Positions 1 through 26,985 of a stretch of DNA of 64,000 nt are shown piece after piece. How positions within the stretch are numbered: position 1 is the first letter of the stretch; the number at the start of each line of letters is the position of its first letter. The stretch is taken from assembly GCA_964602715.1 (NCBI GenBank), contig CAZRSB010000003.1, positions 5,783-69,782 of the forward strand, given 5' to 3'. The stretch comes from an uncultured Thermoplasmata archaeon. GTDB lineage: Archaea; Thermoplasmatota; Thermoplasmata; Halarchaeoplasmatales; Halarchaeoplasmataceae. The translations under genes were made by a program, and so were the position numbers. Below the pieces are notes generated by a model. It made no database searches, was not told the origin of the DNA, and worked only from the letters and a program-made list of their open reading frames with translations.

Positions 1-222
1 TCTCGAAAATCTCTGATAAATCTTGTGAAATATGTGGGTATCCGAAGAAAAAGAAGTCCGAAGAAGAGTGATTTAATTATCCTATTATCCCTTGTTTAAC
101 AGAAAACTTTCAATATTGAGGTACATCTTTTCATCTCCAAATATTCCTGATATAGTGTAATAATTTCTAAAAGAATTTTTTAAACTTAGAGTGATTTTAA
201 ATACTTGATTTCTATGATAGTA

Positions 223-720
223 TCAAAGATCCCGGAATTGTCTGTCCAGTTCACCGGTGTTTTTGGCTTCCTCCCAGGCAGCAATTTTTCTATGTATGAT
301 CCGTTTGTCCCTTTCGACAGAGGACATCCCTCTTTGGGTGAGATTTTTAGTGAACACTCTGAAATACACATCTTCTTCAGCATCATCCATTATGTAGTTG
401 ATCCTTTCCATAACCTCTTCAAGAGTCGGAGCTATGACGATATATCCTTCCCCAACATTACCATATGGTGGACACTCAATTACATGACCAGATTCTTTGG
501 GAGTAATGTCCTCATCATTCTGCCATACCTCTGCCATGGCTATTATATCCACGGTGGATTTTAACTTATTTCTAATCCTACTCGAAACGAAGTCGGAACC
601 TATTTGAAGAAACCCTGATTTTCCTTCACCAATCTTTTGCAGTTTAGCTTTAAGTTCATCAATCTTAGTTTTGCATTCCTTAGGACTTAAATTCTCGTAT
701 TCACTATGTGATTGAGTCAT
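223..720 (-). CDS. hypothetical protein; ORF extends to 822 but the internal ATG (MTQSHSEYEN...) at 720 is preferred as start
   Basis: Six-frame ORF 223..822. Sequence upstream of 720 is an AT-rich promoter-like stretch. No recognisable domain. Confidence 0.45.
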   Translation of the reverse strand: MTQSHSEYENLSPKECKTKIDELKAKLQKIGEGKSGFLQIGSDFVSSRIRNKLKSTVDIIAMAEVWQNDEDITPKESGHVIECPPYGNVGEGYIVIAPTLEEVMERINYIMDDAEEDVYFRVFTKNLTQRGMSSVERDKRIIHRKIAAWEEAKNTGELDRQFRDL

Positions 721-733
721 GGTTAAGGTATAG

Positions 734-1066
734 ATGTTATTAGGTAAAAATTTTTCTAATATCAAGGCTGATCGAAATTTAGAAAGCAGTTGTGAGGAGT
801 TAATAGAGGGCCACCCTACCAAAGATATAGAACGTAAAAGGATACCCTCTAAAGAGACAAATATAACGCCTTTAGCAAATGCTCCCGAGCCGATAAGAAA
901 GAAAAAACAAAAAGAGTATGATAAGGAATATAAGGAGAAAAAAGCAAACGAAAGGAGGGTGTTCTTAAAAGAACAGATAGCGAAGATAGAATCAACGATT
1001 CAAGATGTTAGAAATGACCTTAGCTATACATATTATCTGAAAAATGAACTGAGCAAAAAAAGATAA
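734..1066 (+). CDS. hypothetical Lys/Glu-rich small protein
   Basis: 110-aa ORF divergent from 223..720. Charged low-complexity composition. No motif; may be spurious. Confidence 0.25.
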   Translation: MLLGKNFSNIKADRNLESSCEELIEGHPTKDIERKRIPSKETNITPLANAPEPIRKKKQKEYDKEYKEKKANERRVFLKEQIAKIESTIQDVRNDLSYTYYLKNELSKKR

Positions 1067-1283
1067 ATTTAAAACTGACACTCCGATTTCTCTATAAACT
1101 CCAATATGAAGAAATCAAACAGAGAGAAGGACAAGCCACGTTCTTCTTCCCACGACCGCATATCATCGTGGGGAAAGAACTTTCACTTATACCGATTGCC
1201 CCGCCGATGTATAATCCTTTCACAAAAATCCGTAAACCATATATATTGTTAATTGAATATTTACCTACCAAATAAGTGAAAAA

Positions 1284-1658
1284 ATGGCAAAAGAAGGTTT
1301 GACGAACGAGGAAGAAGAATTGATAGACAGACTCATAAAAGCAGGTATTCAGAAGAACACGGCACGGACACTGGTTTTCGTTGCCAGCCAAGACGAAGCC
1401 AAAAGCAGAGAGATAGAGGATGCCACGGAGCTGAGACAGCCGGAGGTATCCATATCGATACAGGAACTGAGAGACCACGGATGGGTCAGTAGGCGGAAAA
1501 TCAAGAAAGAAGGAAGAGGAAGGCCAGTTCACGGTTATCAGCTAGATAAACCGATGGACGAGATAATCAAAGAGATAGAGGAGAAAGAAAGGGAACGTAT
1601 AGCAGAGATTGAGGAGAACTTAGAGGAAATCAAAGAACTCGTTGGATCATGCTTGTAG
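1284..1658 (+). CDS. winged-helix (TrmB/MarR-like) transcriptional regulator
   Basis: 124 aa. Helix-turn-helix with wing (TARTLVFVASQDEAKSREIEDATEL...GRGRPVHGYQL), followed by an acidic coiled-coil tail. Confidence 0.55.
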   Translation: MAKEGLTNEEEELIDRLIKAGIQKNTARTLVFVASQDEAKSREIEDATELRQPEVSISIQELRDHGWVSRRKIKKEGRGRPVHGYQLDKPMDEIIKEIEEKERERIAEIEENLEEIKELVGSCL

Positions 1659-1976
1659 ATCCAAAACAAAGAGCATTGTTTAGTCTTTCTAGAAATCTAC
1701 GTGATTAGTTATTTCAAAATCAGGCTAACATTGCCTTTTCCGTATAGTTTTTTTCTCTAACCCTACAGTGGGTATTAGGTACATTAAAAATTCTTGGATT
1801 ATGGGTTCAGTAGAAAACCTTCATTTTAGCCGATCTAAAGTTATAATAATCTTCTTCTTCGGTTTTATAACAACCTGTTTTTGCCCTAGATAGCCAATTA
1901 TTACTCCTTATTTAGAGGTTTTCTACAGAGCTAAAGAACAATAAATTTTTAATATAAAGTTAATAATGAATTACCA

Positions 1977-3074
1977 ATGCCAGAATATAAAAATCAACAT
2001 TATGTTCCACAGTATTATCTAAAGTTTTTTAATGACGGGAATAATAAGATTTGTGTTTATAATTTTGATAAAATGGATGAATTTATGGTACCAGTCTCTA
2101 ATGTATGTTCCAATACTTACTTTTATGGTGAAGGGAACATCGAAGAAAGTTTGAATGATTTTGAAACTCAATGCTCAGAATTGATTGAAAAAATAATTGA
2201 GAATGGTAATTTGAATAATATTAGCAATGAAGAGTACACTTTATTATTACAATTTATCCTATTCCAAAGAAGAAGAACAAAAAAGGCTAAAAACGAGATC
2301 GATGAAATTGTACAACACTTTTTCAGAGAGATTACAAAATATGGGGTTGAAAGCGGAGAATTAGACGAAAAAGCCTATGATTTAGCACAGAAAGGAAAAA
2401 TTAGACTAGAACATCCTATGTTTCAATACAGTCTATTATATGGTCCACTTTTTTACAGATTAATAGCCGATCTTGAACCTCTATTAATTCAAAATGAAAC
2501 AAAGAAGGACTTCGTTATAGGAGAACATCCCATAATATTTGATAACCCTTTATTTAAACATACGCAAATTCATGGTGGGATAGGACCGCTAAATAAAGGG
2601 TTGGTTATAATATGTCCATTAAGTACTGAATTTGCGATATTATTGTATGATCCTAAATCTTATAAGTTTGAGTTTGAAAATAGGTTGAAAATCAAAATTA
2701 AAGATCCTTTAGTGATTAAATCACTTAATATTTGTCAATATATCTATAGTGATTCAAATCTGTTCTATGGTCAATGTGGAAGAAAATATGAGATGAGAAC
2801 TATTCAAAAATATTTTAGAGAAGATAAACAAGAAGAAATGTCTAAACACATAGAATATACTCAATCGAATACTAAAAAATCGTTTTTACAATCAACTTCA
2901 AACCCTAGCGATTCTACACCTTATCTACCGTTCCTAAAAGAAAAAAACGGCGTCGAGTTTAAGTTAGAAAGAATAGAAGGTTTAAGTGAGGAAATCCATA
3001 AAGAAGTTTTAACGTATCTTGAAGATTTTTCTGAGTTATCAGAAGACGAGATTAAAAATCTATTCTTCACTTAA
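1977..3074 (+). CDS. DUF4238-family protein (candidate single-gene antiphage protein, Rst_DUF4238-like)
   Basis: N-terminus MPEYKNQHYVPQYYLKFF matches the HYVPQ(F/Y)YL(R/K)xF signature that opens DUF4238 (PF14022). Gene is very AT-rich relative to core genes. Confidence 0.6.
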   Translation: MPEYKNQHYVPQYYLKFFNDGNNKICVYNFDKMDEFMVPVSNVCSNTYFYGEGNIEESLNDFETQCSELIEKIIENGNLNNISNEEYTLLLQFILFQRRRTKKAKNEIDEIVQHFFREITKYGVESGELDEKAYDLAQKGKIRLEHPMFQYSLLYGPLFYRLIADLEPLLIQNETKKDFVIGEHPIIFDNPLFKHTQIHGGIGPLNKGLVIICPLSTEFAILLYDPKSYKFEFENRLKIKIKDPLVIKSLNICQYIYSDSNLFYGQCGRKYEMRTIQKYFREDKQEEMSKHIEYTQSNTKKSFLQSTSNPSDSTPYLPFLKEKNGVEFKLERIEGLSEEIHKEVLTYLEDFSELSEDEIKNLFFT

Positions 3075-3255
3075 ATTAATAATTCGACGGGTATTCTCTC
3101 CTGCATTTCGCGATCCTGCTACGGTCGATCATTCCGCTGTTCATTGCGATGGTGATGAAAGAGAAGAATATATGATGAAAAATTGATTACAACTGAGTCT
3201 AAACGATAATGTATCTCTAGATAATATAAAAAATAGTAATTAAATAAGAGGGTTT

Positions 3256-3408
3256 TTAAACATCGCTGATTCCATGCTTATGAGCACAGTCAACGTGAGC
3301 ATAGTCATCAATCTCTTCATAATAAGCTGGAGTTCCTTTTTCTCGTGTTTGACCTTCACCGCAGAATTTACAAGTCCTTCCCATTTTATATTGGAATGAC
3401 TTCTTCAT
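3256..3408 (-). CDS. small zinc-ribbon-like protein (50 aa), not in ORF track
   Basis: Manual translation: MKKSFQYKMGRTCKFCGEGQTREKGTPAYYEEIDDYAHVDCAHKHGISDV. Contains CxxC plus C/H ligands. Confidence 0.35.
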   Translation of the reverse strand: MKKSFQYKMGRTCKFCGEGQTREKGTPAYYEEIDDYAHVDCAHKHGISDV

Positions 3409-3746
3409 TCAAATAATTTTTGAGACCGTTGTTTTATGATGTCAAATTCATAATGAACCTCTACATTTTCTTTATAAAAAATTGGAACAGTATTTCATTT
3501 TCCACCTACTCAAACTCGCATCTCTCGCAATCCATCGATAGCTTCGGCACCGGGGTCTCCATCTTCAGTATGGCGAAAGAGAATAGTAAGGAGTAAGAGC
3601 ACCCAGAGGAGTACGAGTGAAAGAGATTTTTTCTGTGCTGTAATAGGTCATTAAATCACATCTGGGTCTACTGATAGTTTAGTTACCAACATCGAACAGG
3701 AAACCGTAATCATTATGAAACACCTATGTGTTTACATAGGGAGGAT

Positions 3747-4505
3747 ATGATGCGCAAGAACACTATGCTGACCTTGGAGGAGAGCGTGACAGAAACGGCC
3801 AAAACCATTGGTATAAATCTCAGTCAAGTGGCCGAGAAGGCCATAAAAGAGAGGATTCAAGAGATACTAAGACCAAGGGGAGAGGGGGTTGTTCAGATCC
3901 CCCAAACGGAAAAGGTGGTGCTAAAGAACGTCGGACATTTCCAAGGTGAGAGGGAATTTGAGTTTTCGAGCGGCGTGAATATCATAGTCGGGCCTAACGC
4001 TTCAGGAAAAACTACCATAATCGATTCGTTGAGAGCTGCCTATGGAGATGAAAGGTCTCCGACGAAGAACCAGTTCATGGAGGAAGAAGATGAGAGCTGG
4101 GTACGTGTCGTCCCTGAAAACGGAGCAATAAGAAGGAACGTTGGAGATGAGATCTCGTTCCCGCAGGGAGATACTTCTGAAAGGCTCGATCTAGAGAGAT
4201 TCGAGGGCTTAACCGAGGACGTTAAAGAGCGGCTGAAGTCTAGTGAAACTGAGAGAGCCCTATCAGAGGGAGATAGAGTTCTCAAGGAGATCATCCTCCA
4301 GTCGATGGCCACGAGAGGTAACGAATGTTATCTTAGAGATGGGACGTTGGCGATGTTAGATACAGAGATGAAAGAGATGGTTTTGGATTTCCTATATGAA
4401 CAGGAATTTCAGGTCATACTCACTTACCCTGAGAGAGGGGAGGAAGATAGCGTGATAAGTTCAGAAGATCACAACTTGATAGAATTGGGAGAGAGGAGGT
4501 CCTAA
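3747..4505 (+). CDS. compact ABC/SMC-head-like ATPase with N-terminal RHH-like segment
   Basis: GGAGG RBS at 3738-3742 precedes ATG 3747; the track ORF starts at 3726. Motifs: RHH-like MLTLEESVTETAKTIGINLSQVAEKAIKERI; Walker A GPNASGKTT in an EFEFSSGVNIIVGPNASGKTTIIDSL context typical of SMC/RecF/AAA_21 N-termini; signature-like LSEGDR; Walker-B-like TLAMLDTE; H-loop-like ILTYPE. No coiled coil. Confidence 0.55.
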   Translation: MMRKNTMLTLEESVTETAKTIGINLSQVAEKAIKERIQEILRPRGEGVVQIPQTEKVVLKNVGHFQGEREFEFSSGVNIIVGPNASGKTTIIDSLRAAYGDERSPTKNQFMEEEDESWVRVVPENGAIRRNVGDEISFPQGDTSERLDLERFEGLTEDVKERLKSSETERALSEGDRVLKEIILQSMATRGNECYLRDGTLAMLDTEMKEMVLDFLYEQEFQVILTYPERGEEDSVISSEDHNLIELGERRS

Positions 4506-4602
4506 AATATGTCAAAATTCATTCGCCCCCTATTAGAGGGTTTTAATTGTGAGAAAAAGTATTACATCCCCCGAGAGTTGAAAAGGAGGTATTGATGATC
4601 CC

Positions 4603-5814
4603 TTGGTGAAGATCATGTCAGGAAAAGAAAAACAGGGGTTACACGATCTTTCTGAGGAAGCGATGGACCATTTTATAGAAGGTGTGGAAAAGCAGGAAAA
4701 TGGTCTGTTAGAAGAGGCTATAGAAGAATATGAAAAAGTGATCTCTATCGAAACAAACGATGCTTCAACAAGGAATGATAACGTAGATGCTTCTCGTAGA
4801 AATGGAAAGTCCGGTGAGGAATCCCAGACCTATGATAAGGCCCCCTCTATCGAACCAAAACTCGTTAGAGTGTGGGGCATCAAGGGAAAGGCCCATTTTG
4901 AAAAGGAAGAGTACGATGAGGCCATAAGATGCTTGGACAGAGCCACTTTAATCGATCCCAAGTACACCAATATGTGGATCCATAAGGGAAATGCCTACTT
5001 TGGGAGGGGAGAGTATGATGAGGCTATTGAGTGCTACGATAAGGCTACTGCTATCGAAGCCAAGTATCCCGAATACGCTAAAGTCCTGAACAGCAAGGCC
5101 GAATATGCTAAAGGTTGGAATGGAAAGGGAAAAGCCTACCAAAAGAAAGGTAAGTATGATGAGGCTATTGAGTGCTACGATAAGGCTATCTCTATAGATG
5201 CTGGGGGCGGTATAACATGGGAGATCGATTCTGAGCATGCTATAGCGTGGAATAATAAAGGAAATGTATACAAGGAGAGAGGTGAGTACGATGAGGCTAT
5301 ACGATGCCTTGACAAAGCCACTTCCATCAAGCCAGAGTACACTAATGCGTGGATCAATAAAGGAGTTGCCTATGATGGAAAAGAAGAGTACGATGAGGCC
5401 ATACGATGCCATGAAAAAGCGATCTCTCTTGATTCTGAGAACGCTGGTGTATTGAATAACAAAGGATTGGCCTATGAGGGGAAGGAAGAGTATGAGAAGG
5501 CTATAGGCTTCTTTGACAAAGCCACATCCCTCGATCCTGAGTGTGTTGGAGCATGGATTAATAAAGGCAATGCCTACAGAAAGAAGGGAGAGTTTGACGA
5601 GGCGATCCGCTGTTGTGAGAAAGTTTTATCCCTAGATTCTACGGATCCTGTAGCTTCGGCCATAATCTGGGCTTCTAAAGGGATGGTACATCGGGATAAT
5701 GAGGAACTAACAGAGGCGAAAGAATGTTTTGAAAAGGCTCTTGATCTCTTTCCAGAGTTGTCAGAAGTTGAACCTGTTTTGTCTGAGGTCAAAGAAGAAC
5801 TAGCCGAAACGTGA
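4603..5814 (+). CDS. TPR-repeat protein
   Basis: About 9 tandem 34-aa repeats of the form W..KG.A.....EYDEAI.C.DKA..ID. Start codon uncertain (TTG 4603 or ATG 4615). Confidence 0.8.
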   Translation: MVKIMSGKEKQGLHDLSEEAMDHFIEGVEKQENGLLEEAIEEYEKVISIETNDASTRNDNVDASRRNGKSGEESQTYDKAPSIEPKLVRVWGIKGKAHFEKEEYDEAIRCLDRATLIDPKYTNMWIHKGNAYFGRGEYDEAIECYDKATAIEAKYPEYAKVLNSKAEYAKGWNGKGKAYQKKGKYDEAIECYDKAISIDAGGGITWEIDSEHAIAWNNKGNVYKERGEYDEAIRCLDKATSIKPEYTNAWINKGVAYDGKEEYDEAIRCHEKAISLDSENAGVLNNKGLAYEGKEEYEKAIGFFDKATSLDPECVGAWINKGNAYRKKGEFDEAIRCCEKVLSLDSTDPVASAIIWASKGMVHRDNEELTEAKECFEKALDLFPELSEVEPVLSEVKEELAET

Positions 5815-6129
5815 AGATTCAAAAACGTGGAGAGGAAAGAGAGGCTTAGATGTTAGGGGGGATTTTACCTTCCATCCAAAGCATCAGAAAGTCGAGCCCT
5901 CCCTGATAGTGATCTCTGTATTTCCTCCAAACATTTACTTGATAAATGTTTGAAAGTAAACAATATAGAGATTCTGGATGAATACATTACGTTGGCGGAC
6001 AAGAGATCAACAGGAGGCTCAACATGGTTAATCAGAAATAGCCTATAATGTCGTTGAGTCAATAAAAATTCATTCCCCAAAATGTTATATTCTTTTCATC
6101 ATTTTTACTCGAAAAAGAAGGTGAGTGGA

Positions 6130-7080
6130 ATGAAAAAATTGGAAAAGTATCTGAGAACCGATACACACCAAATGAAATTAAGTGGCTATGCCTACGACTC
6201 GGTGGGAGAGTTGATAGAAAATAAAAATATTTCGAGAGGGATATACGAAGGTTGGAAAAAAACGGGGTTGATCTCTGAACCTGAAGATTTCAAAGAAGAG
6301 GATGTTGGAATAACAAAATTGGAGACCGAGATTGATTTTCTCGCCACTTTGTCCAACTCAGACTTGAGTTGGAAGAATATAAGTGAATTTCTTTCTGAAC
6401 TCTCTAAGCCTTACCATTATGAGATTACTGGCTTATTTTATGATATAGGTAATGATAGGTTCATAGTCAAAGAAAATCTCTTGGAGGAAGAGTTGAAAAA
6501 AACTCGTGTTAGAGAATTTGAGGAGATTAATTTTGAAGACTTTTTACGCAAAAAAGAAACGAATTATGAGGATTTAAAAAAGTTAGAAACAATTGGCTTC
6601 CTCACAGATTTGCCCTCGAAGGATACAATCTTATCACTAGATGAACACAAAGAGGTCGATTTTCTCTGTGATTTATTGGAGAGCGGTTTAACTTGGGATA
6701 AAGTGAACACTCTTCTTGATAGGCTTGAGAAACCATACCAATACGATTCTAATGAACTATTATATAAGATTGAAAATGGAGAGTTCCTCACTAAAGGTGA
6801 TGTAATAGTAAATGAAATTAAAGACCAAATTATTTCTGAGGAGTACCTAAAAGAAAGAATAATGGATGAGCATGAGACTGAGATTATAGAAAGCACACTA
6901 CATAGTCTTCAGGAGAATCTCCAAGATTCAGAATTAGATTTAGTAGAAGACCAGCTAACTGAGGTTGGGGAAAAAATTATCTTTAGATGTAGGGAAATTC
7001 TAAATGAAAATATAGAGGAGATCTACGAAGAAAGAACCAAGGAGTTTGAATTAAGAAAGGATAGAAAGAGAGGTTTTTAA
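6130..7080 (+). CDS. hypothetical protein with internal ~55-aa tandem duplication
   Basis: Track ORF starts at 6082. ATG 6130 (MKKLEKY) follows an AGGTGA RBS. Two repeats: DFLATLSNSDLSWKNISEFLSELSKPYHYEITGLFYDIGNDRF and DFLCDLLESGLTWDKVNTLLDRLEKPYQYDSNELLYKIENGEF. Confidence 0.55.
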   Translation: MKKLEKYLRTDTHQMKLSGYAYDSVGELIENKNISRGIYEGWKKTGLISEPEDFKEEDVGITKLETEIDFLATLSNSDLSWKNISEFLSELSKPYHYEITGLFYDIGNDRFIVKENLLEEELKKTRVREFEEINFEDFLRKKETNYEDLKKLETIGFLTDLPSKDTILSLDEHKEVDFLCDLLESGLTWDKVNTLLDRLEKPYQYDSNELLYKIENGEFLTKGDVIVNEIKDQIISEEYLKERIMDEHETEIIESTLHSLQENLQDSELDLVEDQLTEVGEKIIFRCREILNENIEEIYEERTKEFELRKDRKRGF

Positions 7081-7254
7081 GTCTCTCTAGTCTTATTTAA
7101 AGGGTCAGAGATAGAGAGAGATTAACTTTATGCTAACATTATATCCACTAATTAGGGATGTTGGGGCTTCTGATAATAAATTAAATACCGGAGATCTTTA
7201 AACCCTAGGTCCTCTAATCCAAGGTCATGGCTAAAGATCCTCTATCTCTGTTTT

Positions 7255-8076
7255 TTAAGAGGCTTTGTACCCTTGACAGTTATCGCAGTACCATCTTTCA
7301 AATTCTTCGATAAATCGTAGAGATTTACTACAGTCTGGACACGGCGGGGAGCCGGGTTTTGGATCAGGTGAGTTAGGCTCAGATGGAGTTCTACATCTCC
7401 GTGAATCTCTAGACTTTTTTGGATCGATACCAGTCTCTCCAGTTGGCGAGTTTTCAGGTGAGCTTTCCTCTTTTTTTTCTTCGGGCGCATGTTCCTTATC
7501 CTGGTCGCTCTGGTCGTTCACCTCGATCTCTTCTTCACTGCCTTTCTCTTCGTCTATCTCTTGGGAGTTTTCCTCATCGAGTCCATCTTCCTGGACATCT
7601 ACTTTTTCACTTTCCTCTCTGAGATCCCCTTCTTCACTTTCTTCAAGAGCCTCTTCTTCCTCTACATCCTGCTGTTCCTCGTCTTCTTCACCTGCATCAG
7701 ATTCATCTTTTTCGCTTTCTTTTGTCTCTTTGGATACCTCTTCATCTCTTTCTTCTTTAGTCGGGCCCTCGCCTGGTTGGAGCGTGCTCTCTTCGCTCTT
7801 CATTTTCTTCTCTACTTCATCTTCTGAGATCTGTTCTTCCGATTTCTCAGACTTGCTCTTATTGTTCTGGATCCGATCGATGATCTCTCTGCGATCCCTG
7901 TTTTTCCTTTTCAAGTCCCTATCATTTTTCCGGTGCCATTCCTTTCGCTCTTTCATCTCATCTCTATTTGGTGGTCTGTAAAGTAGCGGAGCGTCCTCCA
8001 CGGGGGCTAAAAAAGGTTTTCGAAGTTCTTTTTCTGAGAGGGAAAACCCCTCTTCTAGATCTTCTTCAGCATGCAT
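7255..8076 (-). CDS. highly acidic, disordered protein with C-terminal zinc ribbon
   Basis: 273 aa of E/D/K/S low complexity ending in CPDCSKSLRFIEEFERWYCDNCQGY. Confidence 0.55.
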   Translation of the reverse strand: MHAEEDLEEGFSLSEKELRKPFLAPVEDAPLLYRPPNRDEMKERKEWHRKNDRDLKRKNRDRREIIDRIQNNKSKSEKSEEQISEDEVEKKMKSEESTLQPGEGPTKEERDEEVSKETKESEKDESDAGEEDEEQQDVEEEEALEESEEGDLREESEKVDVQEDGLDEENSQEIDEEKGSEEEIEVNDQSDQDKEHAPEEKKEESSPENSPTGETGIDPKKSRDSRRCRTPSEPNSPDPKPGSPPCPDCSKSLRFIEEFERWYCDNCQGYKAS

Positions 8077-8195: not shown

Positions 8196-8489
8196 TCATC
8201 CTTTCCAGAAGCAATCATCACAAAAAACGCACCTCTTTCCTTCTAAATCTATTTTATATCGCTCTTTACACTCTTCAAAACCTTCTTGTCGCCCCTCTTC
8301 ACGGGCTTCTTCTATCTCTTTTTTGAGATCTAGACTATCTTTGATGATCTCCTCCAGCCAATCTTTTTTGCTCATATCTACTTCCTGGAGGAGTTCCTCC
8401 AATTCCTCTTTCAGTTCTCGATCAACTCGGAAATTAATAATCGGATTTTGCTTCTCATATTTCTCCCTGGAAGGCGCTTTATCAGCCAT
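8196..8489 (-). CDS. ribbon-helix-helix (CopG-like) domain protein with C-terminal Cys cluster
   Basis: PIINFRVDRELKEELEELLQEVDMSKKDWLEEIIKDSL resembles the RHH strand-helix-helix. C-terminus has CVFCDDC. Confidence 0.5.
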   Translation of the reverse strand: MADKAPSREKYEKQNPIINFRVDRELKEELEELLQEVDMSKKDWLEEIIKDSLDLKKEIEEAREEGRQEGFEECKERYKIDLEGKRCVFCDDCFWKG

Positions 8490-8532
8490 TATAATTATAA
8501 CATCACCTGCTCTATATAGTTTTTTTGTTTTC

Positions 8533-8606
8533 TACATAGTTTACTATATGGTTTTCCATACAGTTTTCCATATGGTTTGCTGTATGGTTTTCCATATCGT
8601 TTGCTA
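8533..8606. repeat. about 6 degenerate tandem copies of a 12-bp unit (TATGGTTTTCCA / TACAGTTTTCCA / TATGGTTTGCTG / TATCGTTTGCTA)
   Basis: Read directly in sequence. Lies 45-120 bp upstream of the RHH gene start (8489). The 8323..8697 ORF across it is a repeat artefact. Confidence 0.6.
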
Positions 8607-9003
8607 TGTGCAAAGGGAGATTTTCTCTTATACTCGATCATCTCCTATAAATTCTCTGGATAGCGATTTTAGTCAAGGCGTAGTAGGGGTACACTAAAAG
8701 GTGCACTATTCCTCGGAAACCGCCGCATGCGGTATATTATACCCCTTCATTTCACCCCTGCCGGCCCCAGGGGGGATGAGGGGTCCCCAAGGGACGAGAG
8801 GAAAAGATGGAAGGAGGGAGCAGGGAAGACAGAAGAAAAGCCGGAGAGGAAAGAAGTAGGAGTAAGAAGAGAGGGGCGAGGGACCGGCGGAAGAGGATGA
8901 GATAGCAGGCGGAGATGAGAAAAAAGTATAGGTAGAAATTAAGAAAGTTTATATTTTAGACGAGCACTCTTTATATGTCAGACAGACTGGAGGCATTAAA
9001 AAT

Positions 9004-9678
9004 ATGCGAGAAAGCACGATGAAAAGATCATCTGTGAGGGAAGAATTTGATATGGTGTTCGAAGAAGAAAATCTAGAAAAAGCAAGAGAAAGTCTTCAGA
9101 GGAAGATAGACGAGCTCGAAGACAAAAAGAAATTGGGAGATGCTCACTACCTTCTAGGATACATTTGCCAACGAGATGAGGACTATGATAAAGCCTACGA
9201 GCATTTGAGAGAAGCGGAGAAGTTGAGAAGAACAGTCGATGATAAAGAAGGGCTGGTAGAGACTCTCTCCTTCCTAGGAACTGTTGAAAAAGAAAAAGGG
9301 AATGAAGAGAAAGGGTTAGAAAATTTAGCTGAAGCGGCAGGTCTAGAAAGGGAACTAGAAAACTTCGAAAGTGCAGGAACATTCTACGCTATGCTCGCTA
9401 ATGGACATGATGAATTGGGTAGAACTGATGAGGTCCTTCACTATCAGAACAAAGCGATAGAGATGATGGAAGAGTTAGATAAAAAGGGCGAAAGCACCTT
9501 GAATGTAGAGGCTATGATTTTCACCAAAAAAGGTGGAGAAGAACTTCGAGACATCCATGGAAAGCGTATAGAGGCGTTTAAAGAGGAATATGAAGGTGAA
9601 TCAGAGGTGTTAACAACGTTTGAAGCCTTCGACGAGATGGAAAACTCCTTGTCAGAGTTGAGGGAAGAACTAGACTGA
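9004..9678 (+). CDS. hypothetical protein with TPR-like helical repeats
   Basis: 224 aa. GGAGG RBS 9 nt upstream. Segments such as AHYLLGYICQRDEDYDKAYEHLREAEKL are TPR-like. Confidence 0.5.
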   Translation: MRESTMKRSSVREEFDMVFEEENLEKARESLQRKIDELEDKKKLGDAHYLLGYICQRDEDYDKAYEHLREAEKLRRTVDDKEGLVETLSFLGTVEKEKGNEEKGLENLAEAAGLERELENFESAGTFYAMLANGHDELGRTDEVLHYQNKAIEMMEELDKKGESTLNVEAMIFTKKGGEELRDIHGKRIEAFKEEYEGESEVLTTFEAFDEMENSLSELREELD

Positions 9679-9802: not shown

Positions 9803-12058
9803 TCAACCGTAATCTTCAAAATTTCTACTTATATAGGGGGCCTGCTCTTTGGGCTTCAAAGGTTCAGTCCTATTTCCTCTTCTAACAAAGAATTTTCCCT
9901 TTCCTTCTCTTTCTATAAACGAGGGGGTATCTGCATGTTCAACTTCTATTAAGCACACTTCCTTACCATTTACGGTAAAGAAAGAAACCTCAATATAATC
10001 ATTGAATTTTTCTTCCATATAGGAAGAAACTAGATTGAGTAGATGCCGTTGGAAAGCTTCTCTTTTTTCTTCCTCTTTGAACGTATCATAATCTTCTTCT
10101 AGACCGTAAACTTCTCCATCATTTTTAACGCCGATTAATAAAGTCCCTCCTTCTTCTGAGTTCAAAAATCCATTTATAGCTTTCATCGATTGATATTCCA
10201 CATCTTTTGTTCTCATACCTCTATCTTTTATATCCGTACGAAGGGTGGATTTAAACTCTAAATTTTGACCTTCACCTTCTTCGATCAACAGTTGGACATT
10301 TGTATCTTGTGCCCTTGAATCGATAACATTGAAAGTTATCCCATCCAGCTCTTCTTTGAGAAGTTCTTCGAATATCTTTATCCTCTTCTCGATAAATTCA
10401 TCGAGATATTTATGGCCCAATTCATCATCCCGGCACCAGTCAAGTATGGCCTTGGGGATTAGATGGGTTTCTAACACCTCTTCAAATCCTTCTCCATCAT
10501 AATCTTTAAGATAGTCAATTGGATTCTTGTCACTGATCTCTAGATTTGTAATCTGGGGAATATAAGCTATGTTCATAAGGCTGTCTTCGTCCAATTCATT
10601 GTCACCAGGATAATCCTCTACAAATCCACGTGGAAAGATATGATGTAGGTTTGGCTTATCTATTAAATGATAATATACTTCACTTATCACTGATCTATCG
10701 TAGTGTTTCCAGTCTTTTGGATCCTGGTTCGATAAGAGGGACAAAATAGCTCTAGAAAATCTCCCTCTATAACTGTATGATGATTCTCTCAGATCATTCC
10801 TATCCAGAATGAAAGGTTCAAATTCAAATTCTTCTCCCTGTTTGGCTTTCTCTAACTCTTCTAAATGATCATATCGAAGATGTCTTGTGTGCTTCAGTTT
10901 CTCTTCATTGTGGAACGAATAATACCAGAAGTACTTTTTTAGTAAATCATAATCAGGATCATCGTTTTCGTAGAAATAAGATGAGATAGTTATGTAGAAA
11001 TATCTGTATGGGATAAGATTTGGACCTTTCAAATGAAGATGGTTTTCAAAGAAGTCAAAAGTATCCCTAAAGGCTTCTTTCGCTCCATCCCATACCTCTT
11101 CTATTTGTTTTGCTGTGATATTATTTAGATAGGTGTCAGTGATATTGTGGACACTTGCATCTTCTATGTTCTGTCTAATTATCATCGCTAACATCTGAAG
11201 GTATGTTTGATACCCTATTCCGGAAAACTCACCTGGTGTATTGTCTTTGAAATCATCTATCATCTCTCTCAGATAGAAACCGCCCTCTGGATGCCCTTCT
11301 TGCCTAAACGTTTTAGCTACCACTATGTCAAATATGTTGAGAGGTTCACCTTCCTGATTTACTCTCTCAAATATTTCACAGACCTCATTGGTCTCTATTC
11401 CCTTCAATTCAATAAATGGGATCCTGTAGTTATCCATCACATGCTTTATCTTCCTCAAATTTTCCCTGTAAGGATGTTCGTAAGAAGTATACCCTAGATT
11501 ATGTATATTCCTTTCAATCTCATTATAGTTCTCCTTTATATCTTTCAGTTTTACGATCAGTCCCTTTTTGTATCTTTTCATCTTTGGGATGTTCTGCTTA
11601 ATCTCTCCGCCTTTGTCGTCTATCTCACCCCAACATAAGAAGCGTTTTTTATACTTTGAATCTTCCTCGTCTTCTTCCTCCTCCACCGTGAGGTCAACGT
11701 ACATAGTGGGCTCAAAGTCTCTTCTCCACTCCCCTTTAGCCCCATATAGGGAGGTTAGCAGGGCTGTTGTCCTTTGCTGCCCATCCAATATATATTTGAA
11801 GTCTGATTCTCTCTCAGAATCGTCGATCTCGTGTCCCCCGATCTTCCTATGTTTCTGCAGTTTTACATCTGTCTTCCAGACCAATATGCTCCCAATCGGG
11901 TAAAATTTATAGATACTGTCCCACAACTTTTTCACATTGTTCTTTTCCCAAATAATTTCCCTCTGGAAAGTGGGAATCTGATATTTTTTGTTCTTCAAAT
12001 TTTCAAGATATGTCCCTATAGAATCATGAGTGGGTTTGATTCTATCTGCATCTTCCAT
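9803..12058 (-). CDS. GmrSD-like type IV restriction-type nuclease (DUF262 + DUF1524) fused to a C-terminal AlbA_2/Schlafen-like domain
   Basis: N-terminal DUF262 motifs (QREIIW, ILDGQQRTTAL). Central His-Me-finger/DUF1524-like HHIFPRGF...NIAYIPQITNLEISDKNP. C-terminal EFKSTL...AINGFLNSEEGGTLLIGVKNDGEVYGLEED resembles the AlbA_2 (PF04326) core. Confidence 0.65.
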   Translation of the reverse strand: MEDADRIKPTHDSIGTYLENLKNKKYQIPTFQREIIWEKNNVKKLWDSIYKFYPIGSILVWKTDVKLQKHRKIGGHEIDDSERESDFKYILDGQQRTTALLTSLYGAKGEWRRDFEPTMYVDLTVEEEEDEEDSKYKKRFLCWGEIDDKGGEIKQNIPKMKRYKKGLIVKLKDIKENYNEIERNIHNLGYTSYEHPYRENLRKIKHVMDNYRIPFIELKGIETNEVCEIFERVNQEGEPLNIFDIVVAKTFRQEGHPEGGFYLREMIDDFKDNTPGEFSGIGYQTYLQMLAMIIRQNIEDASVHNITDTYLNNITAKQIEEVWDGAKEAFRDTFDFFENHLHLKGPNLIPYRYFYITISSYFYENDDPDYDLLKKYFWYYSFHNEEKLKHTRHLRYDHLEELEKAKQGEEFEFEPFILDRNDLRESSYSYRGRFSRAILSLLSNQDPKDWKHYDRSVISEVYYHLIDKPNLHHIFPRGFVEDYPGDNELDEDSLMNIAYIPQITNLEISDKNPIDYLKDYDGEGFEEVLETHLIPKAILDWCRDDELGHKYLDEFIEKRIKIFEELLKEELDGITFNVIDSRAQDTNVQLLIEEGEGQNLEFKSTLRTDIKDRGMRTKDVEYQSMKAINGFLNSEEGGTLLIGVKNDGEVYGLEEDYDTFKEEEKREAFQRHLLNLVSSYMEEKFNDYIEVSFFTVNGKEVCLIEVEHADTPSFIEREGKGKFFVRRGNRTEPLKPKEQAPYISRNFEDYG

Positions 12059-12573: not shown

Positions 12574-15500
12574 TCAGTATCTACTTTCTATACCGTCTGG
12601 TGGGCGTGGTCCTTCCAACGGACTCTGATAGGGGCTTTCCCCTTCCAACTCTGTATCTCCTCCTGGGTTTATCCCGTTCAGGCCTTGATTGATCCATTTA
12701 TAGGCCACTCCTTCCTTTTTTTTGACAAGTGTATCAGTTTTCTCCTCTAGTTCATTCAGGCATCGTCGCACCTGTCTCTTTGACAAGTCGATCTTCTTTG
12801 CAATCGTCTTAGTGGTAAACTCTTCTCTTTTTTTCGCCTCTGAAAAGACTTTCTTCATCCCATCACTCCAAATATTTATGACCCCTGGTTGTGTCTCGTG
12901 AGGGACCCAATCAGGTAAAGTGTTCGTTTCGACATACACAACCGCTCCTTGTCCGTCTCTCCCGAAGCGCATTACTGCTTGAAGAGTGGCATTATGAGTC
13001 ATATGCCGATAGATTTTATTCCCAAAATCCCCATAGTCAGTATCCTCCCCTCTCCCTTCTCTTTCTACTCCCTCGTTTTGGTAGGCCCCCCATTTTTTGA
13101 TGTAATCGTCTCCGCAGTGATTCGATCCGATAACCACACCCAATCGCTTTTTTTTAAGCTTATTTGATCCTTTCAGATTACCGTAGTGAGTGTGATCATC
13201 GACGAATGTGAGCAATCCTTCTTCTTGGTATTGGTCCTTTGCTTTTTTCGTGGTGATCATAGAGGGCCTCTGATCATATAGTTCCGTTAGCTTTTGAAGA
13301 AGGAGCCGATCCGACTCGATGTTGACGTAATTCCCTGAGGAGTAGGGTTTCATGTGCTCAGTCGTGCGGATAAAATGATGATTCAATCCTTCCTTGAGGT
13401 ATTTCTTTCTTTCACTGTCATCCAATACCTGACGATGTTCTAATCTTGCACCACCAAGAGAAATTTCCCACATCTCTTTAATGGGAGTTCCATCTAATGC
13501 AATGATTTGCCTGCAGTAGTACAGATTCGGGGGTTTCATGACGTGAATTCTGTTAGTCGCTCGGTTATGAAGAACGGTGAGATGCTTATTTTTATCAAAA
13601 TAGCGCTTACGCTCGTATCCGTTGACCGTATTATCTTCATCTCCCACCATTTCAAGGAGGGCATGAATCACTGTAGGGGTAAGTGAATGTGTTTCTTCTG
13701 AGTCAAGGACCCATGTTGGGGTTTTCTCCTTCATTCCATCGAGATATTCGAGTGCTTTTTCCCGCCTTTTTTCATCATCCCTGTTTTCCAAAAGATCGGT
13801 AATGTTTTGGAAAGGGATCCTATCTTCGTCCTGAAGGTAATCCGATATGGCTTTTTTTAATTTTTCCGCTGAAAATTTTTCCTCAAAGGCATCCTCGGGA
13901 AATTCATCGAATACTACTGTTCTCTTTTTCGTAACTTTGGGAAGATGAGCACATAGATAATGCCCTATCAGAACATCGTAATATTCCGGATCGAAGTTCC
14001 AAGCCATGCTGTACGGACATGCCCCATCCTTTTGACACGGAGGAGAGCAGTATTTATGGATCTGTTGTGGGGTAAGCCCTCGTTCATACCAATCTTTTAC
14101 CTTATCTTTCCACTCTTCACCGTGTTCCCCTGTTGCTGTTGGACAACTCTGAAAAAAAGAAGGTAGCCGTTTATATGAGAGGTTCTCATCCTCGCACCAC
14201 TCTTCTATCTGTTTATACTGCTCTTTATGTCCCCGATCGGTAAGAACCGTTAGGGGTGTGTGTGTTTCTTTAGCGGCTTTGATTATACCGTTGCTCTTCC
14301 CTAACGAGGGTAGTGCATCGATGAGGATGTTTTCTTGGCTTTCTAACGCATCTACAAGGCAGTCTAACGTTTTTTTCCGTGCTTTTTCCACATGCCTTCT
14401 CCGTGGTCTGTCATCTATGAGGATGGGTTCAACAGGTAAATCACTTACATCATCAGGCTTGTTCACTGAAACTAATAGATCTGGTTTTGGAGATCCTTTT
14501 TCGAGGATGGGAATATCATATCCTCCCTCACTAAGTCCCTCTACGGCTTTCCAGAATGTCCTCCCGTCGAGTTTTTCAGCAGGAGTTGATATGAGCCCCA
14601 CTCCCAGCGCATACGCCTTGAGAGGACCACCGCCCTTATCTACTTTGTTATCTATGAACCGATTTTCTCCTTCAGGGATTGCACAAGATTTTCCGCTTTC
14701 ACTCTCCCGCCAAGAGGGGTTGAAGGTGATTTCGGATGATCTGTTCGAGGTGTCAAACTCGTCGGAAGCGTACTTTTTGACGATCTCTTTTACATCGATC
14801 CTATTAACAGCATCTACTACATCACACCAGTTATCGGTAGTTTCTAAATCAGCCAGGTTAATGTTCTTTTTACGACGCTCTTCCCGTCTCTCTTTCCGAT
14901 CTTCGGTAATTTTTTTTCGCCGTTTTTCTTTTTCCTTCTCCTCTTCAACCCAAGTCTTAAGGGCAACTTTCCAGTCCCCTTCGTAGAAATCTGGAAAGAG
15001 ATCTGAAATCATTTTGTCGAGTGGTCTATGGTTTTCGGGAACTGTGGTAAAATCTACACACCATTCTTTGACCTTTGAAATCAATTCGCTGTCTACGTCT
15101 TCCTTGCGAATCAACTTGTACTCCACGGTGGCAGTATCTATTGGATGGACCACGCCATCTATTTCTTTGTGTAAAGAGAGAGGGCCTTTATATTGCCGAT
15201 TCTTATTGTTAATCGCATCCATTTTACAGATTTCTTCTGCTCCATCAACGCTTTCAAGAACTTCAATCCTCTTTTTTTTAATCCAGTCATTCATGCGGTC
15301 CGTCAATTCATCGAATATTTTTCCCTTGCTGTTCAAATCGCTAATAGGTGCAGTGACGCCTGGAGCAGTGAATATGTAAACTCCTCCAACAGAATCCAAT
15401 AGAAAGACGTGATCCTCTCCTACCAACCTCTCGAATTCTTTTATCATCTTCTCTATCACTTTTGAGAATATTTTTTTCTTCTCAGAAGGAAGGGAGCGCT

Positions 15501-15903
15501 CTTTATGGGCATCCTTTAGGTCAATATCAACGAATAAAGCAGTGGCATAGATTTCATCATAATTAGGCAGAGGTGATTCCCCTCCCTCAAAATATGTGCC
15601 CCCATCGGTACTTTTGCATAATTTCTCTTTCAGAACATCTTTTTTCTGGTAGTTGAGCACGGCGTAATAGTGTCTGTCGATCTGATCTGCAAGTTCTCCA
15701 GCATCACCTCCCAAACTGTAAGGGCGGCCCCGATACTGATATCCTTCTTCGTAGCTTTCGATTTTCTTAGCCGGTCTTTTGTGGTACCACCCATAGTGAT
15801 CACTGATGCCAAAAGTAGTAGTCTCTTCCATCCCTCCTAGAGCTTTGAAAATCGGGATCAATTTTTGGTAATACTTCCTGTGCTCACTCCTTTTCCGTGT
15901 CAT
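12574..15903 (-). CDS. replication initiator-like protein: AEP primase-polymerase-like N-domain, P-loop NTPase, C-terminal wHTH
   Basis: AEP motif I-like ALFVDIDLKD and motif II-like DSVGGVYIF. Walker A-like LPSLGKSNG and Walker B VVFDEFPE. C-terminal helix-turn-helix KTIAKKIDLSKRQVRRCLNELEEK. 1109 aa. Confidence 0.55.
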   Translation of the reverse strand: MTRKRSEHRKYYQKLIPIFKALGGMEETTTFGISDHYGWYHKRPAKKIESYEEGYQYRGRPYSLGGDAGELADQIDRHYYAVLNYQKKDVLKEKLCKSTDGGTYFEGGESPLPNYDEIYATALFVDIDLKDAHKERSLPSEKKKIFSKVIEKMIKEFERLVGEDHVFLLDSVGGVYIFTAPGVTAPISDLNSKGKIFDELTDRMNDWIKKKRIEVLESVDGAEEICKMDAINNKNRQYKGPLSLHKEIDGVVHPIDTATVEYKLIRKEDVDSELISKVKEWCVDFTTVPENHRPLDKMISDLFPDFYEGDWKVALKTWVEEEKEKEKRRKKITEDRKERREERRKKNINLADLETTDNWCDVVDAVNRIDVKEIVKKYASDEFDTSNRSSEITFNPSWRESESGKSCAIPEGENRFIDNKVDKGGGPLKAYALGVGLISTPAEKLDGRTFWKAVEGLSEGGYDIPILEKGSPKPDLLVSVNKPDDVSDLPVEPILIDDRPRRRHVEKARKKTLDCLVDALESQENILIDALPSLGKSNGIIKAAKETHTPLTVLTDRGHKEQYKQIEEWCEDENLSYKRLPSFFQSCPTATGEHGEEWKDKVKDWYERGLTPQQIHKYCSPPCQKDGACPYSMAWNFDPEYYDVLIGHYLCAHLPKVTKKRTVVFDEFPEDAFEEKFSAEKLKKAISDYLQDEDRIPFQNITDLLENRDDEKRREKALEYLDGMKEKTPTWVLDSEETHSLTPTVIHALLEMVGDEDNTVNGYERKRYFDKNKHLTVLHNRATNRIHVMKPPNLYYCRQIIALDGTPIKEMWEISLGGARLEHRQVLDDSERKKYLKEGLNHHFIRTTEHMKPYSSGNYVNIESDRLLLQKLTELYDQRPSMITTKKAKDQYQEEGLLTFVDDHTHYGNLKGSNKLKKKRLGVVIGSNHCGDDYIKKWGAYQNEGVEREGRGEDTDYGDFGNKIYRHMTHNATLQAVMRFGRDGQGAVVYVETNTLPDWVPHETQPGVINIWSDGMKKVFSEAKKREEFTTKTIAKKIDLSKRQVRRCLNELEEKTDTLVKKKEGVAYKWINQGLNGINPGGDTELEGESPYQSPLEGPRPPDGIESRY

Positions 15904-17761: not shown

Positions 17762-18997
17762 CTAATCAACTCTATCTTTCAATACTTTCTTGAACTCTTC
17801 CATTATCTCTTCGTTTTCGTTCATCAACTTTACCATGTCCATGAAATCCTGCATATCATCTAACACTTCTGGCTTTTCTTTTGCAAGTTGGGTAAAATCT
17901 TTGCTTACATCTTCTTTATCCTCTTCTATCTCTTGAGCGGCTTCCACACTTAGCGCTTGTCCACATCGCTGACAAAATTTAGCCTCGGGGGAGTTCTTTT
18001 CTTCACATCTAGGACAGTCTATAGGTGATAATTCGGCGTTGTCATCCTCTTCTTCCTCCTTTATCCCATGAATCTTGTCATATGCGTCATCTATATCTCT
18101 TCCGCTGAGATGCACATATTTAGAAGGTTGATCACTACCTTGGACCCATCCAAACCATTCACACATCATCGCCTCTGTGAATCTGGGGGCTAAAAATGTT
18201 GCTCTACTGTGTCGAAAATGATGTGGATTTACAGGCTTATTGATTTCTGCCTTTTCCGCTGTAGTGTTTAATGCCTTGAGTAAAGTTCTATATTCGGCTT
18301 TCTTTCCGTTATTTTTTGTACCAATATTGACCCATAACGGAGCACTATCCTCATCCCTTTTTGGATGTGAATTTAACCACTCTCTCACATCTGGAATACT
18401 GCTTACTAACGGGAGCCTTCTCGGGCCTGTCTTTCCGTTTATCACAATTTTCAGTCCGTGTTCACGATCCTCAAAATCCCCAATGGTCAGATCAATAATC
18501 TCACCGATTCTAGCGCCTGTTTCCCAGAGAAGGCTGATTAAACACCGATCTCTCGGGTTGCTAGCGTGATTTATCAACTTACTCACATCATCTTCAGTCA
18601 GCATTTTTTTCGGTAACTTACCGTTATTCTTTTTCTCTGTAGTATTGATCCAATCTACTTTATCTGGATATACCCCATCATTCAACCACTTATAGACTAC
18701 TTTTAGAACTATCTTATACTGTCTTTTAGTGGCATCAGCAATATCTCTAGAGTTTACCCAGGCTACAATCTCTTCTATTTGTTCTCTTTCAGCGCCTTTC
18801 AAGTCAAAATCGACATGTTCTAAGATTTTTTTCAAATGTGAGAGAAGTTTTTGTAAGTGAGCATCTGAATAGTCCTGTAGCATAAGATGCCTATGATATT
18901 CTTCTAAGAGTCCTTTGTTTCCTTCAGTTACTTCGTCATTCTCTTTTACCTTTTCGAGGATTTGCTCATGCCGCCCCTCATAGTCTAGGAGAGTCAT
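17762..18997 (-). CDS. int: tyrosine recombinase/integrase with C-terminal zinc ribbon
   Basis: SAM-like N-domain. Catalytic residues in TGARIGEI, HHFRHSRAT and the downstream Y region. C-terminal CPRCEEKNSPEAKFCQRCG. Confidence 0.8.
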   Translation of the reverse strand: MTLLDYEGRHEQILEKVKENDEVTEGNKGLLEEYHRHLMLQDYSDAHLQKLLSHLKKILEHVDFDLKGAEREQIEEIVAWVNSRDIADATKRQYKIVLKVVYKWLNDGVYPDKVDWINTTEKKNNGKLPKKMLTEDDVSKLINHASNPRDRCLISLLWETGARIGEIIDLTIGDFEDREHGLKIVINGKTGPRRLPLVSSIPDVREWLNSHPKRDEDSAPLWVNIGTKNNGKKAEYRTLLKALNTTAEKAEINKPVNPHHFRHSRATFLAPRFTEAMMCEWFGWVQGSDQPSKYVHLSGRDIDDAYDKIHGIKEEEEDDNAELSPIDCPRCEEKNSPEAKFCQRCGQALSVEAAQEIEEDKEDVSKDFTQLAKEKPEVLDDMQDFMDMVKLMNENEEIMEEFKKVLKDRVD

Positions 18998-19548: not shown

Positions 19549-20061
19549 ATGAAAGAAAAATCAAGATTGGGAAAGGAAAAAAAATCTAAACCTAAAAGAG
19601 GAAAAGATAGAAAAGATAAGGCGGATCATATGAAGAAGAAAGCTAAATATGACAAAAAAATTGCAAAACAGGAAAAGAAAATAGGCAAATATGAGGGTAA
19701 AATAGAAAAATATCGAAATAAAATAGAAGATTTCAAAGATAAAATAAATAAAGCAAAGGCAAAACAAAGAGAAGCACAGCAGCTTTCAGGGAGAGCACAC
19801 AAGAAAACCCAATCGAAAAAAGAGAGAGGTGACAGGGAAAATAAGGCTAAACATATGAAAGAGAAGGCAAAATATGATAAGACTATCGCAAAGCAGGAAA
19901 AGAAAATCGGTAAATATGAAGAGAAAATAAGTAAGTATAAAAATAAGATTAAAAAATATAAAAAGAAAAAGAAAGATGCTTTGGGAAAAAAGAAGGAACT
20001 GAAAAAAAAATCTAATGAAGAAAAGAAATCTATAAGAAAAGACTCTAATAAAGAAAAGTAA
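19549..20061 (+). CDS. Lys-rich protein with a ~75-aa internal duplication
   Basis: Repeats of HMKKKAKYDKKIAKQEKKIGKYEGKIEKYRNKI. GGTGG RBS. Confidence 0.5.
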   Translation: MKEKSRLGKEKKSKPKRGKDRKDKADHMKKKAKYDKKIAKQEKKIGKYEGKIEKYRNKIEDFKDKINKAKAKQREAQQLSGRAHKKTQSKKERGDRENKAKHMKEKAKYDKTIAKQEKKIGKYEEKISKYKNKIKKYKKKKKDALGKKKELKKKSNEEKKSIRKDSNKEK

Positions 20062-26650: not shown

Positions 26651-26652
26651 AT

Positions 26653-26963
26653 ACTAGGTCACCGAGGTTGGTGCTCAGCTCACCACTGAGGACCCCAAAT
26701 CCATCCTCGACCTCGCTACCCCACGAGCATCGGTAGTCCAGGTATCGGCTGCTCCCTTCCGGGCCTGGCCTGGTAAACCTGGCTAAGACAAAGGAGAACA
26801 ACCCTCCGGTTGTTCTCCAAAGCACCTCCGATCCCGTGGGACGAAGTCTCATCGTCTGGATCTGGCTCAGCGGTGGGCTGATTACACCGTCCCCGGTGGT
26901 CACCCCCGCGTATCGGCGATTTCGGTGTATAAGGGCACGCCGACCGCCCCGGTTAGACCTAGC
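26653..26963 (-). ncRNA. signal recognition particle RNA (7S RNA)
   Basis: Minus strand carries CCAGGCCAGGCCCGGAAGGGAGCAGCC, matching the conserved SRP RNA helix 8 / domain IV motif. Terminal helix CTAGGTC...GACCTAG. About 310 nt and GC-rich in an AT-rich genome. Confidence 0.75.
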
Positions 26964-26985
26964 AAAAGTTAGTTAGACCAACCTC

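Follow-up and report, generated by a model that had tools for sequence, protein, structure and literature searches.

A divergent stand-alone DUF4238 gene on an integrase-bearing island of a halophilic Thermoplasmatota archaeon, a candidate for antiviral defence

The 64,000-nucleotide (nt) stretch of archaeal DNA considered here in its entirety (contig CAZRSB010000003.1, positions 5,783 to 69,782 of the forward strand; hereafter the window) carries, at 1977..3074 on the plus strand, a stand-alone gene for a 365-amino-acid (aa) DUF4238 protein, which was recognised from the open reading frame (ORF) listing and a PF14022 match and which falls within an archaeal 'long-form' clade. The locus is a divergent member of a known family and not a new kind of system; its family membership, its homology over the full domain, its stand-alone organisation, its defence-island and prophage contexts, and its fold without a solved relative are established. 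Antiviral or anti-mobile-element defence would be the most likely role of the gene, a reading given about an even chance of being correct, and an antiviral function is plausible from distant homology combined with neighbourhood (guilt by association).

Reading frame, conserved residues and predicted fold

The ORF at 1977..3074 opens with an ATG and is full length at 365 codons, its product beginning MPEYKNQHYVPQYYLKFF. With the translation start read as MPEYKNQHYVPQYYLKFFNDG, the N-terminal motif HYVPQYYLKFF, which a first-pass annotation of this DNA had singled out, is indeed present and occupies residues 8-18; the ATG itself is supported because residues 1-11 (M1-P11) are identical across the four closest homologues from a word-index search. 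Two metagenome contigs holding copies of the region (L001 and L002) encode an identical protein, the gene itself being identical in both copies, and the gene in the window is genuine, intact, and divergent. A gap of 318 nt separates it from the upstream gene and contains, about 24 nt before the ATG, a TATA-like element (TTTTTAATATAAA, 1946..1958, plus strand, read from the sequence), which suggests that the gene may be transcribed from a promoter of its own into an mRNA with little or no leader; a chance match is also possible, the upstream region being AT-rich. No flanking repeats or target duplications were found around the gene.

Membership in DUF4238, as proposed by the annotation, extends far beyond the first ten residues of the protein. 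The PF14022 domain (1992..2768, plus strand, including the N-terminal NQHYVPQYYLKFF motif at 1992-2030) was aligned over residues 6-264, corresponding to positions 1-277 of the 281-position profile, with E=2e-37 and a score of 129.6 bits relative to a cut-off of 27. The N-terminal family motif HY[VI]PQxYL is represented by HYVPQYYL at residues 8-15, and H8 and P11 are conserved in 148/148 and 146/148 members of the family alignment, respectively. Across 149 diverse DUF4238 members, approximately 20 positions, mostly polar, are near-invariant, among them E56, E63, R100-T101, D165, N173, S-D-x-P at 182-185, N190, G203, G208, P214, D225, Y229, N251, and Q254. The window protein retains every near-invariant position except S182 (glycine) and D183 (glutamate), such that the S-D-x-P element (S in 137, D in 144, and P in all 149 of the members) is replaced by the lineage variant G182-E183-H184-P185 (2520..2531, plus strand, assigned from family column counts). 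The abundance of invariant polar residues points to a putative enzymatic active site.

The AlphaFold2 (AF2) structure model based on a 143-sequence alignment is of high confidence (predicted local distance difference test, pLDDT, 93.3; predicted template modelling score, pTM, 0.91), whereas a 31-sequence alignment yielded a mediocre model (pLDDT 74). Four parts can be distinguished: an N-terminal beta element bearing H8; a helical bundle (55-76, 84-99, and 102-125) bearing E56, E63, and R100-T101; a central beta-sheet region (167-264) with D165, N173, the GEHP loop, N190, D225, Y229, N251, and Q254; and a C-terminal extension (residues 265-365; 2769..3071, plus strand) that lies outside the Pfam domain and was delimited from the family alignment and the model. 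The model is likewise confident in this extension, which comprises a helix, a beta-hairpin, and two further helices, with F319 and R332 conserved (R332 in 143/145 members). No transmembrane segment was found in the protein, and its isoelectric point (pI) of 5.26 equals the median of the window proteins. Sequence searches of solved structures (PDB), with the single sequence as well as with a profile, returned no match, and searches of NCBIfam and PHROGs returned no informative match.

Relation to Rst_DUF4238 and to the archaeal long form

The closest known system is Rst_DUF4238 (PADLOC 'DUF4238-Pers'), a single-gene anti-phage system of a P2-like prophage hotspot in E. coli TA007 (plasmid pFR101), the protein of which strongly protects against T7 (PMC9122126). 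Its mechanism of defence is stated to be unknown in the literature (PMC9122126; 2024 survey), and the 2024 survey lists DUF4238 as unclassifiable. The first-pass annotation had called the window gene Rst_DUF4238-type, a designation that holds for homology but not for the subfamily. With the E. coli TA007 sequence given in the supplementary material to Rousset et al. 2022 (PMC9122126), the PADLOC model PDLC03000 'DUF4238-Pers' recovered the E. coli protein as a positive control (718 bits, E=2.5e-217) and gave no match to the window protein at E<=1, while pairwise BLASTP aligned only residues 1-138 of the window protein with the E. coli protein (25% identity, E=1e-5). In contrast, hhalign matched the clade profile to the E. 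coli protein with 98.4% probability (E=4.8e-15) over 261 columns at 19% identity (query 4-272 against E. coli 1-297). The two proteins are homologous throughout the domain, yet represent different subfamilies.

The two have in common the same Pfam domain along the whole length, the residues H8, E56, E63, R100-T101, (S/G)(D/E)xP, G203, and P214, and the encoding of both by a single gene without a partner on mobile DNA. The differences are nevertheless considerable: identity to the window protein is just 16-19%; the E. coli protein, at 309 aa, lacks the conserved C-terminal ~100 residues of the long form, as well as P11, Y50, D165, N173, N190, G208, D225, Y229, N251, and Q254; and the window gene resides in an archaeal host on an integrase-bearing island without virion genes rather than in a P2 hotspot. 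Unlike Rst_DUF4238, the window locus does not lie in a prophage or satellite hotspot, although some of its relatives are prophage-borne.

Closer relatives are found mainly among the archaea. A search with the single sequence returned just four homologues (28-33% identity), and a profile search returned 31, almost all of which are haloarchaeal; in data restricted to one genome per species, the top ten loci were all from Halobacteria (28-34% identity), followed by bacteria (23-29%). An exhaustive HMMER search, in which representatives stand for clusters at 50% identity, yielded 11,102 representatives at E<=1e-3, of which 1,716 remained at E<=1e-30. At this level of clustering, the window protein is its own representative. 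The closest relative, P0080, is encoded ~1 kb from an integrase gene on an archaeal contig and shares 39% identity with the window protein across the full length. In a neighbour-joining tree (Poisson distances, 100 bootstraps), the window protein belongs to a six-member subclade (bootstrap 97) inside a 36-member, all-archaeal clade (bootstrap 97), to which a mixture of bacterial and IMG/VR sequences is the sister group (bootstrap 60). Whether archaeal copies nest within bacterial clades had been put forward as a check; because the sampling was biased by N-terminal search patterns, such nesting of the archaeal clade among bacteria is only suggested, and the window protein's own clade is wholly archaeal.

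The archaeal proteins of Haloarcula montana (L003), Halococcus thailandensis (L004), and Haloarcula sp. H-GB4 (P0007), together with the metagenomic P0080, share this clade with the window protein (bootstrap 97). All are 362-388 aa long, carry the C-terminal extension, and occur in low-GC island contexts, and all have a similar N-terminus around K5-N6-Q7-H8-Y9-V10-P11 (MPEYKNQHYVPQ in the closest word-index homologues), of which N6-P11 is invariant in alignment A2. They differ from the window protein in sequence (25-39% identity), in host (Halobacteria rather than a low-GC member of the Thermoplasmatota), and in the G-E-x-P variant, which the window protein has in common with P0080 alone. Among bacterial and phage-borne proteins, V9IQH5 of Stenotrophomonas phage Smp131 matches the predicted fold over ~330 alignment columns (Foldseek E=1.4e-6, probability 1.00), and a Xanthomonas euroxanthea long-form member (P0031, identical to the IMG/VR locus L052) is prophage-borne; V9IQH5 and the prophage homologues are uncharacterised and only 12-26% identical to the window protein.

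Genomic setting, proposed role and rival explanations

The annotation had further described the gene as lying in an AT-rich islet between core genes, of which the islet, but not the core flanks, was recovered. In a 200-nt composition profile, GC content ranges from 0.245 to 0.36 over an islet (approximately 1700..3500, delimited by this profile and by per-gene values) that holds the DUF4238 gene as well as a 50-aa ORF convergent with it, as compared with 0.45-0.50 in the genes on both sides; the two genes enclosing the islet have per-gene GC values of 0.46-0.47. The DUF4238 gene has a GC content of 0.291 and a GC content at third codon positions (GC3) of 0.232, the second lowest GC3 among 38 window genes, whereas the genes flanking it have a GC3 of 0.50-0.53. 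The 23 core-like genes beyond ~19 kb (including those for aIF2-alpha, aIF5B, S-adenosylmethionine (SAM) synthetase, Pus10, SMC, ABCE1, archaeosine tRNA-guanine transglycosylase, and RpoB) have a GC of 0.355±0.029 and a GC3 of 0.295±0.019. As most genes from position 1 to 19 kb are GC-richer than these (GC3 0.37-0.53), that region is a compositional mosaic; the flanks of the DUF4238 gene are foreign-looking island cargo, GC-richer than the core, and the gene itself lies below neighbours and core alike (z=-2.2 for GC and z=-3.4 for GC3). Low relative GC is also a trait of the family: in 30 of 37 non-redundant loci of DUF4238 relatives, GC is lower in the gene than in its ±8 kb surroundings (median difference -7.5 points, Wilcoxon p=4.6e-7).

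Among 21 loci of relatives, no neighbouring ORF family within ±4 kb recurs in three or more. The absence of a recurrent neighbour, together with the 318-nt upstream gap and its TATA-like element, indicates that DUF4238 is an autonomous single-gene unit. An operon with the adjacent MarR or AAA_23 ATPase gene was rejected, as neither neighbour recurs at other loci, and an RNA partner of the kind seen in type III toxin-antitoxin systems was likewise discarded, no Rfam match or tandem repeat having been found near the gene. Relatives were found in comparable contexts. One haloarchaeal relative begins 23 nt after McrBC (L042 4986-9140), with a DUF1156/DUF499 pair, PIN-ribbon-helix-helix (RHH), and an integrase nearby; another lies ~440 nt downstream of an AAA+DUF6414 pair (L046 4983-9143), which the survey equates with the Dodola system, and these McrBC-DUF4238 and Dodola-like-DUF4238 sets may be co-transcribed defence modules. 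A further relative is flanked by two integrase genes, with a type I restriction-modification (R-M) system 3 kb off; the Xanthomonas prophage relative is positioned between a portal/minor-head gene and downstream ORFs; one is found in an Oscillospiraceae phage; and several haloarchaeal relatives occupy ORFan-rich variable regions without recognisable defence genes. Separately, two bacterial long-form loci, in Pelagicoccus (L014 9298-12195) and in a Nitrospirales metagenome-assembled genome (MAG; L015 9298-10889), have two homologous downstream genes in common, the sole recurrent neighbour pair seen, which may be a co-travelling module.

In the favoured reading, the product of the window gene, predicted to be a soluble, cytoplasmic, single-gene protein, would serve in defence as does its distant homologue Rst_DUF4238 of E. 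coli P2-like prophages, and would act as a self-contained sensor-effector enzyme. Its putative active site would be formed by H8, E56, E63, R100-T101, D165, N173, (S/G)(D/E)xP at 182-185, N190, D225, Y229, N251, and Q254, and its activity would block virus replication after infection, possibly via abortive infection. The archaeal long-form clade, in turn, would move horizontally among archaea of hypersaline habitats (Halobacteria and halophilic Thermoplasmatota) on integrase-bearing islands.

Several of the same observations could be accommodated by a protein that serves the mobile element itself, whether through addiction or exclusion directed against competing plasmids or proviruses or through a part in the element's life cycle, and that travels with integrases for this reason. 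Repeated integrase adjacency, the ORFan-rich, low-GC variable regions, the presence of members in a prophage head module and in IMG/VR contigs, and the several contexts without recognisable defence genes all speak for such a role. It is nevertheless considered unlikely, since the sole family member tested confers resistance to an unrelated lytic phage, the gene has neither a set position with respect to integrases or replication genes nor a conserved partner, and insertion into prophages in the manner of a moron is characteristic of cargo for superinfection exclusion or defence. More improbable still is an ordinary accessory enzyme or regulator that stands outside genetic conflict and occurs in a variable region by chance. 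The family's function is unknown and the family is very large (the 11,102 representatives noted above), such that clades may differ in function, and the pI of the protein matches the host proteome; however, the distribution is patchy and horizontally mobile, GC lies below that of the flanks, members are carried by prophages and adjoin McrBC, Dodola, and R-M systems, and no link to any metabolic operon was seen.

The replacement of the near-invariant S-D of S-D-x-P by G-E raises the further prospect of an inactivated or decaying copy, given that G182 occurs in only 10/149 and E183 in only 3/149 members. This explanation is regarded as highly improbable: the reading frame is complete, the model shows high confidence along its whole length, every other near-invariant position is kept, and the change from D to E is conservative. 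Moreover, G-E-x-P is kept in P0080 at 39% identity and has therefore persisted through long divergence; because this closest relative carries the same variant, G-E-x-P would appear to be a retained lineage feature rather than a sign of decay. Defence against viruses or other mobile elements stays the role most favoured for the gene, at the even level of belief given at the outset.

Host, surrounding island and implications

The annotation's description of the copy as archaeal proved sound. The archaeal markers of the window include aIF2-alpha, an archaeal SAM synthetase, and Pus10, alongside an archaeal signal recognition particle (SRP) RNA at 26652-26964 (minus strand) and a tRNA-Gly; RpoB, which is unsplit (1207 aa, 58686-62309, plus strand), is closest to Thermoplasmatota, being 84-86% identical to that of Thermoplasmata, Thermoplasmatota, and 'Candidatus Natronoplasma' MAGs. 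On the strength of the RpoB similarity and the archaeal SRP RNA, the host is a halophilic Thermoplasmatota archaeon near 'Ca. Natronoplasma', and neither a haloarchaeon nor a methanogen.

The island was inventoried from the window together with L001, a near-identical metagenome contig that extends the region 8 kb leftward and contributes, to the left of the window, a DrmMI/type IIG methylase-like protein (1055 aa, PADLOC 4e-69) and a PLD-family nuclease (DrmC/PbeA-like). Immediately around the DUF4238 gene are a MarR/TrmB-type winged-helix regulator with a GC of 0.459 (1284..1658, plus strand; Pfam MarR_2 6.8e-07, TrmB 2.5e-05) and the convergent 50-aa ORF (3256..3408, minus strand), which is called as a gene on both L001 and L002 and has a small zinc-ribbon-like CxxC...C/H pattern, no family match having been found for it. 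The plus-strand gene at 3726..4505 encodes a 259-aa protein combining a CcdA-like RHH with an AAA_23/SMC_N P-loop head (Pfam); its N-terminal head alone resembles the ATPases GajA, LmuB, and PtuA, with partial PADLOC matches to mad3 (5.6e-11) and GajA (1.3e-09), and the protein could represent an ABC-type ATPase in truncated or minimal form. Tetratricopeptide repeat (TPR) proteins are encoded at 4603..5814 and 9004..9678. The minus-strand gene at 9803..12058 encodes a 751-aa protein in which GmrSD_N (DUF262) is fused to Schlafen AlbA_2 (Pfam 1.4e-31 and 4.2e-16, respectively); it also matches the PADLOC candidate systems PDC-M55C (2.5e-41) and HEC-05 (1.6e-35), and is probably a modification-dependent nuclease-type defence gene. 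Beyond a weak C-terminal helix-turn-helix, the 1109-aa island protein at 12574..15903 (minus strand) had no match in Pfam, PHROG, or PADLOC. A tyrosine integrase with a zinc ribbon follows at 17762..18997 (minus strand; Pfam Phage_integrase 1.4e-18, PHROG integrase 4e-30), past which composition returns to core-like values.

No PHROG virion genes were detected in the window island, and comparison of its left edge on L001 with the integrase side for attachment-site direct repeats gave chance matches of 12-13 nt only. The most suitable description of the region is that of a defence or mobile island bearing an integrase. The suggestion that the DUF4238 gene is horizontally mobile defence cargo fits this context of integrase, GmrSD-Schlafen fusion, methylase, PLD nuclease, and ATPase.

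Some further features of the region deserve mention. The L001 segment upstream of the window (1-7775, window -8023 to -249) holds, besides the methylase-like protein and the PLD nuclease, a PCNA fragment with a non-core GC3 of 0.54, compared with 0.29 for the core; the island may reach past PCNA and include a sliding clamp of its own. A 12-nt tandem repeat (GTTTTCTATATG; 8527-8607, 6.8 copies, alternatively with a 36-nt period) adjoins an Arc/RHH-like gene (8196-8489, minus strand) and looks like the iteron or operator of a plasmid-type element. Just past the integrase, a 170-aa ORF (19549-20061, plus strand; 43% Lys+Arg, pI 10.2) is encoded on 20-21-nt tandem repeats, with three Tandem Repeats Finder (TRF) arrays within 19645-19969, and may be a genuine basic protein or else an artefact of the repeats. 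Two giant proteins are also encoded on the minus strand, one of 1911 aa (51705-57440) that is extremely acidic (pI 4.05) and combines a CARDB domain with a double zinc ribbon, and one of 1470 aa (29326-33738) with no Pfam match.

Taken by itself, the locus adds one more divergent member of a named family in a typical defence-island setting. The family is of wider interest, as DUF4238 is a validated anti-phage determinant, with over 11,000 clusters formed at 50% identity, whose mechanism and fold are unexplained. As the archaeal long-form clade would escape standard defence finders, its presence in archaea is probably underestimated in current catalogues. Together with the confidently predicted structure, the small set of near-invariant residues provides concrete targets for mutagenesis.

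Finally, a broader proposal may be advanced, albeit tentatively and with more doubt than belief, that long-form DUF4238 (~360-380 aa, with the conserved C-terminal extension) constitutes a distinct, widespread single-protein immune family common to archaea, bacteria, and the viruses of both, with a fold without a solved relative, an unrecognised catalytic chemistry, and an archaeal clade exchanged between Halobacteria and halophilic Thermoplasmatota. If this were true, the locus would open the way to a new antiviral mechanism, one at work in archaea as well.
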